Source: Escherichia coli (lineage in GTDB: Bacteria; Pseudomonadota; Gammaproteobacteria; Enterobacterales; Enterobacteriaceae). Taken from it: 64,000 nucleotides of DNA. Made by a program: the position numbers and the translations under genes. How positions within the stretch are numbered: the first letter of the stretch is position 1; each line of letters starts with the position of its first letter. The DNA is taken from NCBI RefSeq assembly GCF_003334815.1, contig NZ_QOWO01000009.1. One strand, written 5' to 3'. The notes under the pieces are model-generated. The model saw only the letters and a program-made list of their open reading frames with translations, ran no database searches and was not told the origin of the DNA. This document shows positions 1-55,720 of the stretch, in pieces.

Positions 1-516
1 AACGCCGCAGTGCGTATCCGCCAGCAGCATCCGGTCACGCAATTTACTGACCAGCTGCGCGGCATTATTCACGCCGACGAAAAACTGGCACGGGAAGATT
101 TTATCATTCATCGCCGTGATGGGTTGTTCGCCTACAACCTGGCTGTTGTGGTTGATGATCATTTCCAGGGCGTTACAGAAATAGTGCGTGGGGCTGATCT
201 GATTGAACCAACAGTAAGGCAAATCTCGCTGTACCAGCTTTTTGGCTGGAAAGTGCCAGATTACATTCATCTGCCGCTGGCGCTTAATCCACAAGGCGCT
301 AAACTTTCCAAGCAGAATCATGCGCCTGCGTTGCCGAAAGGCGATCCACGCCCGGTACTAATCGCGGCACTTCAATTTCTGGGGCAGCAGGCAGAAGCAC
401 ACTGGCAGGATTTCAGCGTCGAGCAAATCCTTCAGTCAGCCGTCAAAAACTGGCGGCTTACCGCCGTGCCCGAGTCGGCAATTGTAAATTCAACATTCTC
501 AAATGCGTCATGCTGA
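1..516 (+). CDS. gluQ: glutamyl-Q tRNA(Asp) synthetase, 5'-truncated at window edge (C-terminal 168 codons present)
   Basis: ORF 10..516 translation recognised as the GluQ-RS C-terminus; reading frame is open to the window start; lies immediately upstream of pcnB as in E. coli. Confidence 0.85.
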
Positions 517-575
517 GCTATGATTAGCCGCTATTTTTTTGTCCTGAATGATGTTTGACACTACCGAGGTGTACT

Positions 576-1973
576 ATTTTTACCCGAGTCGCTAATTTTT
601 GCCGCAAGGTGCTAAGCCGCGAGGAAAGCGAGGCTGAACAGGCAGTCGCCCGTCCACAGGTGACGGTGATCCCGCGTGAGCAGCATGCTATTTCCCGCAA
701 AGATATCAGTGAAAATGCCCTGAAGGTAATGTACAGGCTCAATAAAGCGGGATACGAAGCCTGGCTGGTTGGCGGCGGCGTGCGCGACCTGTTACTTGGC
801 AAAAAGCCGAAAGATTTTGACGTAACCACTAACGCCACGCCTGAGCAGGTGCGCAAACTGTTCCGTAACTGCCGCCTGGTGGGTCGCCGTTTCCGTCTGG
901 CTCATGTAATGTTTGGCCCGGAGATTATCGAAGTTGCGACCTTCCGTGGACACCACGAAGGTAACGTCAGCGACCGCACGACCTCCCAACGCGGGCAAAA
1001 CGGCATGTTGCTGCGCGACAACATTTTCGGCTCCATCGAAGAAGACGCCCAGCGCCGCGATTTCACTATCAACAGCCTGTATTACAGCGTAGCGGATTTT
1101 ACCGTCCGTGATTACGTTGGCGGCATGAAGGATCTGAAGGACGGCGTTATCCGTCTGATTGGTAACCCGGAAACGCGCTACCGTGAAGATCCGGTACGTA
1201 TGCTGCGCGCGGTACGTTTTGCCGCCAAATTGGGTATGCGCATCAGCCCGGAAACCGCAGAACCGATCCCTCGCCTCGCTACCCTGCTGAACGATATCCC
1301 ACCGGCACGCCTGTTTGAAGAATCGCTTAAACTGCTACAAGCGGGCTACGGTTACGAAACCTATAAGCTGTTGTGTGAATATCATCTGTTCCAGCCGCTG
1401 TTCCCGACCATTACCCGCTACTTCACGGAAAATGGCGACAGCCCGATGGAGCGGATCATTGAACAGGTGCTGAAGAATACCGATACGCGTATCCATAACG
1501 ATATGCGCGTGAACCCGGCGTTCCTGTTTGCCGCCATGTTCTGGTACCCACTGCTGGAGACGGCACAGAAGATCGCCCAGGAAAGCGGCCTGACCTATCA
1601 CGACGCTTTCGCGCTGGCGATGAACGACGTGCTGGACGAAGCCTGCCGTTCACTGGCAATCCCGAAACGTCTGACGACATTAACCCGCGATATCTGGCAG
1701 TTGCAGTTGCGTATGTCCCGTCGTCAGGGTAAACGCGCATGGAAACTGCTGGAGCATCCTAAGTTCCGTGCGGCTTATGACCTGTTGGCCTTGCGAGCTG
1801 AAGTTGAGCGTAACGCTGAACTGCAGCGTCTGGTGAAATGGTGGGGTGAGTTCCAGGTTTCCGCGCCACCAGACCAAAAAGGGATGCTCAACGAGCTGGA
1901 TGAAGAACCGTCACCGCGTCGTCGTACTCGTCGTCCACGCAAACGCGCACCACGTCGTGAGGGTACCGCATGA
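576..1973 (+). CDS. pcnB: poly(A) polymerase I; start taken as the non-canonical AUU codon at 576..578 (ORF track begins at an in-frame TTG at 555)
   Basis: Translation matches PAP I ([11 protein letters not shown]... through the basic C-terminal tail). No in-frame ATG exists near the N-terminus; pcnB is known to initiate at AUU. Confidence 0.9.
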
Positions 1974-2449
1974 CAGTGGCGTATATTGCCATAGGCAGCA
2001 ATCTGGCCTCTCCGCTGGAGCAGGTCAATGCTGCCCTGAAAGCATTAGGCGATATCCCTGAAAGCCACATTCTTACCGTTTCTTCGTTTTACCGCACCCC
2101 ACCGCTGGGGCCGCAAGATCAACCCGATTACTTAAACGCAGCCGTGGCGCTGGAAACCTCTCTTGCACCTGAAGAGCTACTCAATCACACACAGCGTATT
2201 GAATTGCAGCAAGGTCGCGTCCGCAAAGCTGAACGCTGGGGACCACGCACGCTGGATCTCGACATCATGCTGTTTGGTAATGAAGTGATAAATACTGAAC
2301 GCCTGACCGTTCCGCACTACGATATGAAGAATCGTGGATTTATGCTGTGGCCGCTGTTTGAAATCGCGCCGGAGTTGGTGTTTCCTGATGGGGAGATGTT
2401 GCGTCAAATCTTACATACAAGAGCATTTGACAAATTAAACAAATGGTAA
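1970..2449 (+). CDS. folK: 6-hydroxymethyl-7,8-dihydropterin pyrophosphokinase (HPPK)
   Basis: 159-aa ORF with HPPK sequence ([12 protein letters not shown]...); start overlaps the pcnB stop by 4 bp (ATGA). Confidence 0.95.
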
Positions 2450-2818
2450 TTTATTTATATTGCGAATATAAATATTTTCTGAAAATCATATCTCATCTCT
2501 TTCCTTAATTACGATTTTAGTTTAAACATCTCTTTGCGGAAATAATATAACTTCCTATAAATAAATATCAATCCCATCTCCATACCCTAACCAATTGCAC
2601 TTGTGAACTTATTTTTACTTAATTTTGAATTAAGTAAATTTAATTTGTTCAAAAGCTTCTAAAGTGCACAATAGGCGACCTAATGAACAATGGTTGTAAA
2701 TTTGGGTAACAAATATCATTGCTCATTAATATCTAACATTTGTTTCTCCTATTTGTGTCATGAATAGTCATTCTTCAAACATGTAGTCTGACTAATGGAA
2801 TTTTATTAAAGGATTTTT

Positions 2819-36685: not shown

Positions 36686-36845
36686 GGGTTATTCCTTATC
36701 TATCTAATAACGTTGAGTTTTCTGGAACCTGTCCCATTGAACTCTCGCCGGAAAGCTCAATAAGACAGGTTCTACGTTTAGTTGCCGCGCTTTTATATGC
36801 GCTTGATTTACAACATCTTCTGGATAATTTTTACCAGAAAAATCA

Positions 36846-48059: not shown

Positions 48060-48268
<209 letters not shown>

Positions 48269-48272
<4 letters not shown>

Positions 48273-48671: not shown

Positions 48672-48701
48672 TAAAAAAGGCGCAGAATCCTGCGCCTTTT
48701 A
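48672..48701 (-). terminator. hairpin with U-tract downstream of secA (minus strand: aaaaggcgcag-gattc-tgcgcctttttt)
   Basis: GC stem followed by T-run on the minus strand between secA and mutT; could act as a partial terminator or attenuator. Confidence 0.4.
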
Positions 48702-48717
48702 CTTCAACAGTTAGCTT

Positions 48718-51423
48718 TTATTGCAGGCGGCCATGGCACTGCTTGTATTTTTTACCAGAACCGCACGGGCAAGGATCGTTACGTCCTACTTTGCGCTCTC
48801 CGGTTTGCGCCGCCAGTGCAGCTGCGGCTGCAGAGTCGTCATCCTGATGGCTAAGCTGCTGCATTTGCGCTAAACGCTCGGCTTCCATACGACGCTGTTG
48901 TTCCAGCTCCTCAACCTCTTCAGGCATACGTACCTGAACTTTGCTCAGCGTACTGATAACTTCATATTTCAACGACTCCAGCATCGCTGCAAACATGGAG
49001 AACGATTCACGTTTGTATTCCTGCTTCGGATCTTTCTGTGCGTAGCCACGCAGGTGGATACCCTGACGCAGATAGTCCATCGCTGCCAGGTGCTCTTTCC
49101 ACAGGGAGTCAAGCGTTTGCAGCATGACGCCTTTCTCGAAGTGACGCATCATCTCAGCACCAACCACTTCTTCTTTACGCTGATACACTTCGATGGACTG
49201 CGCCAGAATGCGCTCACGCAGCGTCTCTTCATGCAGTTCTGGTTCTTTATCCAGCCACTCGGCAATTGGCAAATCGAGGTCGAAATCGTTCTTCAGACGT
49301 TCCTGCAGCCCCGGAATATCCCACATTTCTTCCAGCGACTGTGGTGGAATGTAGGCATCAATGGTCGCTTTGAACACATCTTCACGAATGCTGTTAATGG
49401 TTTCGCTCACATCGCTGACATCCAACAGTTCGTTACGCTGGGAGTAAATGGCGCGACGCTGATCGTTAGCCACGTCATCATATTCCAGCAGTTGCTTACG
49501 AATGTCGAAGTTACGGCTTTCAACTTTACGCTGGGCGTTGGCAATCGCTTTAGTCACCCACGGGTGTTCAATGGCTTCGCCTGGCTTCATACCCAGTTTA
49601 CGCATCATGCCGGATACTCGGTCGGAAGCAAAAATACGCATCAGCGCATCTTCCATCGACAGGTAGAAACGGGAAGAACCAGCATCCCCCTGACGACCAG
49701 AACGACCGCGCAACTGGTTATCGATACGACGGGATTCGTGACGCTCGGTACCGATGATATGCAGGCCACCTGCTTCCAGTACCGCATCGTGACGTACCTG
49801 CCAGTCGGCTTTAATTTTTTCAATTTGCTCTGCGGTCGGATTTTCCAGCGCGGCAACTTCTGCCTGCCAGCTACCACCGAGCACAATATCTGTACCACGA
49901 CCCGCCATATTGGTCGCGATAGTCACCGCAGCCGGATAACCTGCCTGAGCAACAATCGCCGCTTCGTTGGCGTGGAATTTGGCGTTCAGGACGTTGTGCT
50001 TAATACCGGCTTTGGTCAGTTCGTTTGACACCAGCTCCGATTTTTCGATGGAGATAGTACCCACCAGCACCGGCTGGCCTTTCGCAGTACGTTCTTTGAT
50101 ATCTTCAATGATCGCCTGAATTTTTTCCGCTTCAGTCATGTAGACCAGGTCCGGCAGATCTTTACGAATCATTGGACGGTTGGTCGGAACAACGACGGTA
50201 TCCAGCTTGTAGATTGAGCTAAATTCGAAAGCTTCGGTATCAGCAGTACCGGTCATCCCCGCCAGTTTTTCATACAGACGGAAGTAGTTCTGGAAGGTGA
50301 TCGAAGCCAGCGTTTGGTTTTCGTTCTGGATCTGCACACCTTCTTTCGCTTCCACAGCCTGGTGCAGACCATCGGACCAGCGACGGCCCTGCATGGTACG
50401 ACCGGTGTGTTCGTCAACGATGATAACTTCACCATCTTTAACGATGTAGTCGACGTCACGGGTAAACAGCGCATGAGCGCGCAGCGCCGCCGTTACGTGG
50501 TGCATCAGCATGATGTTGGCCGGAGAGTACAGAGACTCCCCTTCATCCATGATGCCCTCTTTCACCAGCAGTTCTTCAATCAGCACCAGACCACGTTCGG
50601 TCAGGTTCACCTGGCGAGATTTTTCGTCCACCGAGAAGTGGCCTTCGCCCTGGAAGGTTTCGGAGTCTTCTTTTTCCTGACGGATCAGGTGCGGAATAAT
50701 TTTATTCACGCGTTTATACATTTCCGAGCTGTCTTCTGCCGGGCCGGAAATGATCAGCGGTGTACGCGCTTCATCGATCAGGATGGAGTCCACTTCGTCC
50801 ACCAGCGCATAGTGCAGTTTACGCTGTACACGTTCTTCAGGGCTGAACGCCATGTTGTCGCGCAGGTAGTCAAAGCCGTATTCGTTGTTCGTACCGTAAG
50901 TGATGTCAGCTGCGTAAGCTTCGCGCTTTGCCGGTGCTGGCATGCCCGGCAGGTTGATACCGACAGTCAGGCCAAGGAATTCAAACAGCGGACGGTTGTT
51001 TTCGGCGTCACGTTGCGCCAGGTAGTCGTTGACGGTAACTACGTGCACGCCTTTACCGGTTAGTGCGTTCAGGTAAGCAGGCAGCGTTGCGGTCAGGGTT
51101 TTTCCTTCACCGGTACGCATTTCGGCGATGCAGCGTTCGTTAAGAACCATACCGCCGAGTAACTGAACGTCGAAGTGACGCATACCAAAGACGCGCTTAC
51201 TTGCCTCACGTACCACGGCGAAAGCTTCCGGGATCAGATTTTCCAGCACTTCGCCTTTTTCCAGACGTGCACGAAACTCTGCGGTTTTCCCTTTCAGTTC
51301 TTCGTCGGAGAGTTTTTCCATCTCCGGTTCCATGGCATTGATGATGTTGACCACTTTGCGCATCCGGCGCAGGGTGCGATCGTTACGACTACCGAAAACT
51401 TTAGTTAACAATTTGATTAGCAT
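48718..51423 (-). CDS. secA: preprotein translocase ATPase SecA
   Basis: 901-aa ORF with DEAD-like motor domains and C-terminal zinc-binding [14 protein letters not shown]. Confidence 0.97.
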
Positions 51424-53245: not shown

Positions 53246-54397
53246 TTAATCAGCTTGCTTACGCAGGAATGCTGGGATATCCAGATAATCCGGCTCTTTC
53301 GCAGTTTGCGGCGCATTGTCATTCACGACTTTAGCAACCGGCTTCTGCTCCTGGGTCAGCGGAGCCATCCCATGCTGCTGGTAGCGATCCATCACTGGCT
53401 GCTGAACCTGCTTATTGGTCACCAGAGTGATTTCAGGACGTTTGTCCATGCCGATACCTGTCGCAACAACGGTTACGCGCAGCTCGTCATTCATATCCGG
53501 GTCAAGAGAAGTACCGATAACCACAGTCGCGTTGTCGGAAGCAAATGCACGGATGGTGTTACCTACCGTTTCGAACTCATCCAGACGCAGGTCGAAGCCC
53601 GCCGTGATGTTAACCAGCACGCCGCGCGCGCCAGACAGGTCGATATCTTCCAGCAGCGGAGAAGAGATAGCCATTTCAGCAGCTTCTTCCGCACGGTCTT
53701 CACCGCTCGCCACGCCAGAACCCATCATTGCGTAGCCCATCTCAGACATTACGGTGCGTACGTCTGCAAAGTCCACGTTCATCAAACCCGGACGAGTAAT
53801 CAGTTCAGCGATACCTTGCACAGCGCCTTTCAGTACATCGTTCGCTGCGCCAAACGCATCCAGCAGGGAGATACCGCGGCCCAGAACTTTCAGCAGTTTG
53901 TCGTTCGGGATAGTGATCAGAGAGTCCACATGCTTGGACAGTTCAGTGATCCCCTGCTCCGCGAATGCCATACGCTTCTTGCCTTCAAAGTTGAAAGGCT
54001 TAGTGACGACAGCAACGGTCAGGATACCCAAATCTTTTGCCACTTCAGCGACGACTGGTGCTGCACCTGTACCGGTACCACCACCCATACCCGCAGCAAT
54101 AAAGACCATGTCTGCACCTTCCAGCGCCGCACGCAATGCATCGCGATCCTCATCAGCCGCATTGCGGCCAACTTCTGGATTAGCGCCAGCGCCCAGTCCT
54201 TTGGTGATACCGCTACCGATTTGAATCGTCTGTCCAACCGCTGTTTTACGCAGCGCTTGTGCATCGGTATTTACCGCGAAGAATTCAACACCTTCAATGC
54301 GCTCGCGCACCATGTGTTCAACAGCATTACCGCCGCCGCCGCCGACGCCGATGACTTTAATCACCGCGTCATTGGTAAGTTCCATTGGTTCAAACAT
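53246..54397 (-). CDS. ftsZ: cell division GTPase FtsZ
   Basis: 383-aa ORF with the tubulin signature GGGTGTG. Confidence 0.98.
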
Positions 54398-54457
54398 AGT
54401 TTCTCTCCGATTTGTGCCTGTCGCCTGAGGCCGTAATCATCGTCGGCCTCATAAAAA

Positions 54458-55720
54458 TTAAAACTCTTTTCGCAGCCAACTATTGAGTCGCTTGATCCAC
54501 GAGCCAACTGATGCTGTAACACGTTTTTCTACTTCAGCTTCACCGTTAAGATGTGACTCTTTCCCATAGTGAAGCAATCCCACCGCCGTCGAATAATACG
54601 GCTCCTGAGCATAATCCGTTAAACCGGTAATGTTCAGCGGCGCGCCGATACGCACTTGCGTATGAAACACGCGCTGAGCACAGGCTGCAAGACCTTCGAT
54701 CTGCGCTGCGCCACCGGTTAATACAATGCCTGCCGCCAGGTGATGTTTAACCCCTTGTTGGCGAAGCTTTTCCTGCAACTGCAATATCTCTTCGTTGACC
54801 AGGTTGAGCAGCTCGGTATAGCGCGGCTCGATCACCTCTGCCAGTGTCTGACGTTGCAGACTCCGTGGCGGACGACCACCTACGCTCGGCACTTCCACGC
54901 TCTCATCTTTTCCAACGATGGAACCCAGCGCACAACCGTGGCGAACTTTAATCGCTTCGGCGTCGCTTGGCGGCGTGCCAAAGGCGTAAGCGATATCACT
55001 GGTCACGACATTGCCAGCATAAGGAATTACCTTAGTGTGGCGCAATGCCCCACCGGTATAAACGGCGATATCCATTGTACCACCACCGATATCGACGACG
55101 CAGACACCCAGTTCACGTTCATCTTCCGTCAATACCGAATAACTTGATGCCAGTCCGGCAAATATCAGTTGGTCAACTTTCAGCCCACAACGTTCAACCG
55201 CTTTGACGATGTTTTTCGCCATATCGTTGTGACATGTGATCAGGTGCACTTTTGCCTGCATCCGCACGCCCGAAAGTCCTACCGGATTCTTGATCCCTTC
55301 CTGATAGTCAATCGCATACTCTTGCGGGATCACATGCAGCACACGATGCTCATCGCGCACACGCACCGATTTCGCGGTATGGACGACGTTTTCCACATCT
55401 TCTTGCGTCACTTCTTCTTCAGAAATAGGCACCATACCAATTTCATTCTGGCAGCTGATGTGCTTACCAGAAAGCGCCAGATATACCGAAGAGATCTGAC
55501 AATCTGCCATCAATTCTGCCTGGTCAATGGCGCGTTGTACGCACTTGACCACGGATTCGAGGTCGTTCACCCCGCCTTTATCCATACCACGCGACGGGCA
55601 GCTGCCCACGCCAATGATATTGACCATACCGTCGGGCAGAACTTCCCCTACTAAAGCGGCAACCTTCGCGGTACCAATCTCCAGTCCTACTACCAGTTTT
55701 CTGTCCGTCGCCTTGATCAT
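54458..55720 (-). CDS. ftsA: cell division protein FtsA (actin-like ATPase)
   Basis: 420-aa ORF matching FtsA. Confidence 0.97.

Follow-up and report, generated by a model that had tools for sequence, protein, structure and literature searches.

PAP I, the product of pcnB, governs RNA decay and the copy number of ColE1-type plasmids and is toxic when overproduced, and the question raised by its gene in Escherichia coli is which codon starts its translation. A preliminary description of the locus had argued that, with no in-frame ATG before the conserved N-terminus, only a TTG or an ATT could serve and that initiation must therefore be non-canonical. We analysed a stretch of E. coli DNA of 64,000 nucleotides (contig NZ_QOWO01000009.1 of assembly GCF_003334815.1), referred to here as the window, to which all positions refer. 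It is chromosomal sequence with the gene order gluQRS-pcnB-folK and corresponds to the reverse strand of MG1655 (NC_000913.3), window position x being MG1655 coordinate 159702 - x. Of the 5426 complete E. coli genomes, 5424 contain a match to positions 300–900 that covers 80% or more of the length at an identity of no less than 95%. The gluQRS gene ends at 516 (stop codon 514–516), the pcnB reading frame ends at the TGA at 1971–1973, and folK starts at 1970. The pcnB stop and folK start overlap in an ATGA at 1970–1973, a layout typical of translational coupling, and folK adjoins pcnB in every distant locus retrieved.

The identity of the gene is clear from its product and its neighbourhood. 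The polypeptide matches the E. coli PcnB cluster P0002 with 100% identity and contains all three Pfam domains of the family, PF01743, PF12627 and PF12626 (E ≤ 5e-20), that is, the PolyA_pol head domain, which begins at residue 62, the RNA-binding domain and the arginine-rich C-terminal domain. The gluQRS-pcnB-folK arrangement found here recurs with equal neighbours in the distant loci. PDB entries 3AQK–3AQN represent the same protein, residues 28–442; the models begin at residue 28 or 29 and the native N-terminus is not visible in them. An Rfam search of window positions 1–2500 gave no match at E ≤ 1, and the matches above the gathering threshold elsewhere in the window (tp2, two of naRNA4, STnc40 and PssrA) are unrelated to pcnB. 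The features considered below are collected in Table 1.

Table 1. Positions of the features discussed, numbered along the window.
Feature	Position	Strand	Basis or remark
sigma-70 promoter-like site TTCTCA-17-TATGAT	496–524	+	consensus scan; overlaps the last codons and stop of gluQRS
In-frame TGA closing the pcnB frame upstream	549–551	+	
In-frame TTG	555–557	+	taken as start in earlier annotations (472 aa); most probably not functional
Shine-Dalgarno GAGGTG, 4 nt upstream of ATT	566–571	+	invariant in 83 loci
ATT (AUU) start codon of pcnB, PAP I of 465 aa	576–578	+	RefSeq, conservation, literature
Codons 1–13, conserved N-terminal basic amphipathic motif	576–614	+	
pcnB coding sequence	576–1973	+	PolyA_pol head, RNA-binding and arginine-rich C-terminal domains
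In-frame GTG, codon 12	609–611	+	picked as start in automated gene calling, giving 454 aa
First in-frame ATG, codon 52 counted from ATT	729–731	+	
Rfam matches tp2, naRNA4 (two copies), STnc40, PssrA	36688–36801; 48076–48269; 48673–48742; 54389–54478	+; -; -; -	

After the TGA that closes the frame upstream, the in-frame codons read TGT, TTG (555), ACA, CTA, CCG, AGG, TGT, ACT, ATT (576) and TTT. Both the TTG and the ATT are thus located where the preliminary description had placed them, and it was also correct in finding no in-frame ATG ahead of the conserved N-terminus, the first being codon 52. This ATG, at 729, was reportedly proposed as the pcnB start by Liu and Parkinson in 1989. The statement that only TTG or ATT is available was, however, too strong, since in-frame GTG codons are present at 609, at 660 (codon 29) and at 666 (codon 31), all of them upstream of the first in-frame ATG and of the head domain. 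Both TTG and GTG belong to the standard start codons of bacteria. A non-canonical start is therefore not forced by the lack of ATG, and because TTG is itself canonical, the choice of ATT over TTG needs evidence from outside the window, the sequence of which would permit a canonical start. That the 8 codons separating ATT from the upstream stop include no ATG is statistically unremarkable. What exceeds chance, judged from the sequence comparisons, is conservation: ATT is invariant across the species sampled and the surrounding segment is near-identical across E. coli.

For these comparisons a genome scan provided 80 Enterobacteriaceae species with 86–100% protein identity, and three more distant Enterobacterales (L084–L086) brought the full set to 83 loci. 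Within E. coli, the 60 nt at 552–611 are identical in 5417 of 5425 complete genomes, and in the one variant inspected the sole change, C574T, falls in the spacer between the Shine-Dalgarno sequence and ATT. ATT occupies the homologous codon in all 80 Enterobacteriaceae and in 83 of 83 loci when L084–L086 are included. The GAGGTG upstream and the 4-nt spacer separating it from ATT are likewise invariant in all 83, the spacer (572–575) being fixed in length and variable in sequence (TACT, CACT, CACC, CAAC, CGCT and others). A column-by-column profile of the 80 species places TTG555 within the least conserved part of the leader, 541–556, and shows a conserved block that starts at about position 563 and continues into the coding region. 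As expected of an AUU-initiated gene, ATT stands where the conserved protein begins, no canonical start being present that could take its place, and a Shine-Dalgarno sequence lies at functional spacing from it. A 15-codon out-of-frame upstream reading frame at 548–595 (ATG ATG TTT GAC ... CGC TAA) overlaps both the Shine-Dalgarno sequence and AUU. A function for this frame was considered and rejected as improbable, because its ATG codons are lost in most Citrobacter and in other genera.

Pairing with the 3' end of 16S rRNA was calculated for each candidate start. The value for ATT576, -9.8 kcal/mol, is in the top 3% of the window positions sampled, and those for the other candidates are -8.2 (GTG666), -4.5 (GTG660), -4.0 (ATG729, with a spacing of about 3 nt), -2.3 (TTG555) and -0.1 kcal/mol (GTG609), the last two codons having no Shine-Dalgarno sequence. 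The pcnB ribosome-binding site has been called 'poor' (PMC3561954, PMC8496165, bioRxiv 10.1101/063800). By calculation its Shine-Dalgarno sequence is instead strong, and the inefficiency appears to sit in the codon. A 'poor' site in the sense of a strongly structured one was also considered and found unsupported, the predicted RNA fold of 530–640 being less structured than that of shuffled controls (z = +1.24). Further downstream, a Shine-Dalgarno-like AGGUGA at 658–663 precedes GTG666, and most Enterobacteriaceae have ATG as codon 29, where E. coli has GTG (660). The region 658–668 could be a site of internal initiation or pausing, and it might be related to the two bands detected by anti-PAP I antibodies in PMC2939334.

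Codons 1–9 are invariant at the nucleotide level within the Enterobacteriaceae. As this alone cannot separate coding from non-coding constraint, the argument about the start needs more distant homologues. A direct search for homologous proteins yielded close Enterobacteriaceae only; the distant homologues were therefore drawn from 50%-identity protein representatives, for which the encoding DNA was then retrieved, resulting in seven loci. L084, L085 (from a 1.08-Mb genome) and L086 are Enterobacterales-like, with 62–67% protein identity, and have the exact GAGGTG-N4-ATT, at 840, 801 and 765, respectively. In L087 (55% identity) GAGG is followed by ATT ATT, and in L088 (54%) the motif starts with ATC, the stretch from the upstream stop to the motif being free of canonical codons. 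L089 (48%) offers GTG, or ATC six nt after TAGGTG, and L090 (53%) has a plain ATG start at the DNA level. This pattern agrees with a statement, attributed to Binns and Masters in PMC3561954, that in many Proteobacteria AUU may be the start codon of PAP I homologues.

The protein comparison bears on the same point. PAP I residues 1–13 align with the extreme N-terminus of distant homologues (MLIIKKLFKKIF, MIRKLIKVF, MINQFIRRIL and MLQFLKKVF), which are listed with an N-terminal M; among proteins of this kind the DNA was read for L090 alone, where the codon is ATG. Residues 1–13 are followed by a variable linker and then by a conserved core from about residue 31. Because the motif is homologous to the extreme N-termini of these distant proteins, the start should lie at 576 or within one or two codons of it. 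A start at GTG609 is excluded because it would delete the motif, and a start at ATG729 would remove, in addition, some 20 conserved core residues (31–51).

Upstream of the gene, the promoter-like site TTCTCA/TATGAT is probably the major pcnB promoter pB of Binns and Masters, with transcription probably beginning a short way downstream of it. The block around 496–540 shows conservation of at least 80% across the 80 species, with a conserved TAGCCGCTATTTTTTT tract downstream of the promoter-like site. TTGACA at 555–560 was tried as a -35 box and rejected; there is no acceptable -10 element at 16–18 nt, the promoter scan is silent there, and the sequence is kept in some genera only. An internal sigma-S promoter, pS1, is active in vitro with the sigma-S holoenzyme; its activity in vivo is confined to stationary phase in the absence of ppGpp (PMC2939334). 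The PS1.rev primer of that study is the reverse complement of positions 710–733, which fixes the ATG of the product proposed for pS1 at 729.

Three other starting points for translation have to be weighed against AUU576. Initiation at UUG555 would yield a PAP I of 472 aa with seven extra residues, MTLPRCT, and ATT576 would then be an internal Ile codon. UUG555 is the first start-capable codon of the reading frame and a standard bacterial start, it would be on the transcript if the promoter is the one at 496–524, and 472-aa versions of the protein have been deposited for several genera. It is also the start named in the introduction of PMC3561954, where the old TTG annotation still echoes; the same paper gives AUU in its discussion, and RefSeq and the later literature use AUU. 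Against UUG555, beyond its lack of a Shine-Dalgarno sequence and its position in the least conserved leader segment, a TTG at -21 is found in only 26 of the 80 species. No in-frame ATG, GTG or TTG exists between the upstream stop and ATT in 43 of the 80, and in three species (L050, L062 and L076) a TAA at -15, five codons upstream of ATT, makes any start upstream of ATT impossible, yet all of these keep ATT and its Shine-Dalgarno sequence. The residues MTLPRCT, moreover, have no counterpart in distant homologues. Taken together, these data make initiation at UUG555 very improbable.

Initiation at a downstream GTG, either 609 (454 aa) or 660/666 (about 435 aa), would turn 576–608 into untranslated leader. 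GTG609 is invariant in the 80 species and is chosen by gene callers, a non-coding regulatory element could formally account for the nucleotide invariance of 576–602, AGGUGA precedes GTG666 with a favourable pairing energy, and most species have ATG at codon 29. GTG609, however, has practically no calculated pairing with 16S rRNA, the third position of codon 31 (GTG666) is highly variable, and diverged orthologues change nucleotides in this region yet keep the peptide pattern of residues 1–13 in frame. Far homologues whose listed sequences carry an N-terminal M have the motif right at their beginning, L090 being confirmed from its DNA to start at ATG, and we consider a GTG start scarcely credible. 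The third possibility, proposed by Nadratowska-Wesolowska et al. (PMC2939334), is of another kind, in that a shorter isoform translated from ATG729 on the pS1 transcript would be made in addition to the AUU product and would explain the two anti-PAP I bands. The in vitro activity of pS1, the two immunoreactive bands described in several papers (PMC2939334) and the position of the PS1.rev primer are in its favour. Codon 52 is nevertheless Leu, not Met, in most Enterobacteriaceae species, the Shine-Dalgarno sequence ahead of it is weak and closely spaced, the product would be without conserved residues 31–51, and its own proposers regard the short isoform as unlikely under normal conditions (PMC2939334). 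Such an isoform is improbable and, given the non-conserved Met and the weak Shine-Dalgarno sequence, would be at best a conditional by-product.

The reading that remains, and in which we have high confidence, is that pcnB is transcribed mainly from the promoter just upstream and translated from AUU576 behind a strong Shine-Dalgarno sequence, inefficient initiation keeping PAP I low. The sequence anatomy of the start, its conservation and the exclusion of the alternatives upstream and downstream are what the present comparisons establish. IF3 discriminates against codons that are not AUG, GUG or UUG, as in infC autoregulation. In the proposed mechanism, the pcnB mRNA would arise mainly from the upstream promoter, probably TTCTCA/TATGAT at 496–524, and the well-spaced GAGGUG would set the 30S subunit on AUU576, where the initiator tRNA would pair at two of the three codon positions and form a complex of the type that IF3 discriminates against. 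Initiation would then be inefficient, AUU working at about 1–2% of AUG in the reporter assays of the literature, and PAP I would be held at a few tens of molecules per cell, so that the toxicity of excess polyadenylation is avoided. By analogy, we infer that IF3 sets the PAP I level and that output should rise when IF3 is limiting. The inefficient AUU start would be one way in which PAP I stays scarce.

This agrees with what has been reported for the gene. According to accounts in PMC2939334, PMC3561954, PMC9764084, PMC8496165 and bioRxiv 10.1101/063800, Binns and Masters (2002, Mol Microbiol 44:1287) found that the AUU start limits PAP I synthesis. PAP I is present at about 30–50 molecules per cell, and its overexpression kills cells via tRNA polyadenylation (PMC3561954). 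In both MG1655 records examined, the RefSeq pcnB coding sequence of 465 aa starts at window position 576, which is MG1655 159126. The suggestion in the preliminary description that initiation at ATT576 matches the reported AUU start, and that this start keeps PAP I levels low, is accordingly borne out by RefSeq, the literature, the species comparison and the Shine-Dalgarno analysis. In the literature searched, neither ribosome profiling nor N-terminal proteomics turned up for pcnB, and retapamulin was linked to the gene only by a mention in a reference list. The AUU start has been known since 2002 and is annotated in RefSeq, and for E. coli the present analysis is a correct re-reading with nothing new in this respect. 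What is added here is the larger sample of 83 loci, the quantified Shine-Dalgarno energies and the frozen synonymous sites in codons 1–9.

These frozen sites (576–602) are the only part of the locus where something so far undescribed might lie. In each of the nine, codon 4 with its rare CGA among them, a single codon is used by at least 97% of 78 Enterobacteriaceae species; elsewhere in the gene only 10% of comparable codons for invariant residues are that uniform (naive P of about 1e-9). Of the 10-codon windows within the first 400 codons, this one is the lowest. Codons 41–44 (CGC AAA GAT ATC; 696–707) are likewise frozen across the 78 species. The two stretches together suggest nucleotide-level constraint, which may come from the initiation region, from promoter pS1 or from an RNA- or protein-binding site. 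A candidate hairpin was found in which the Shine-Dalgarno region (565–571) pairs with ACCCG of codons 2–4 (581–586), with AUU in a 9-nt loop and a predicted energy of -4.5 kcal/mol. The pairs are 565-586, 566-585, 568-584, 569-583, 570-582 and 571-581. Natural changes within it are wobble-compatible single substitutions in L036, L048 and L085 and, in L045, one that breaks only the terminal pair; no compensatory double changes occur, and the pairing is lost in L086. We raise only tentatively the idea that a second cis-acting element tunes AUU initiation, be it this hairpin or a site bound by a protein or small RNA. The frozen codons 1–9 could equally well stem from ribosome contacts, from pS1 or from a binder acting in trans.

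The practical value of the result is a lesson for annotation. Because gene callers ignore ATT, they either lengthen pcnB by starting at a TTG or ATG upstream or shorten it to the GTG at codon 12 or an ATG at codon 19, and the PcnB orthologue group has been deposited with at least six N-termini, giving lengths of 465, 472, 454, 447, 478 and 481 aa (P0012, P0013, P0014, P0032, P0105). Two Salmonella subspecies have ATG at -21 in place of TTG. In these Salmonella enterica loci (L021, L022) the in-frame ATG, 21 nt upstream of position 1501 of the locus, stands in the place of the E. coli TTG555, and NCBI annotates a 472-aa PcnB from it (MTLPRCAIFTRV..., P0013, a cluster of 2921 sequences). This ATG has no Shine-Dalgarno sequence, and GAGGTG-N4-ATT is fully kept in both. 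Salmonella PcnB is widely annotated from an ATG that lacks a ribosome-binding site.

Among known systems, the closest is the E. coli pcnB AUU start itself as described by Binns and Masters (2002), which shares locus, codon and interpretation with the present reading and differs from it in nothing of substance. Together with infC, pcnB is one of the only two confirmed AUU-initiated genes of E. coli (PMC9764084). The infC gene, which encodes IF3 and lies outside this window, resembles pcnB in having a rare AUU start that is conserved across species and throttles translation. It differs in that infC is autoregulated by its own product, whereas for pcnB we infer that IF3 would act in trans, without a feedback loop. 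In Enterococcus faecalis, a rare ATT start of ebpA is described (PMC4447247) as attenuating the expression of a protein whose excess is harmful or costly, a role similar to the one proposed here although both the protein and the organism are unrelated to pcnB.
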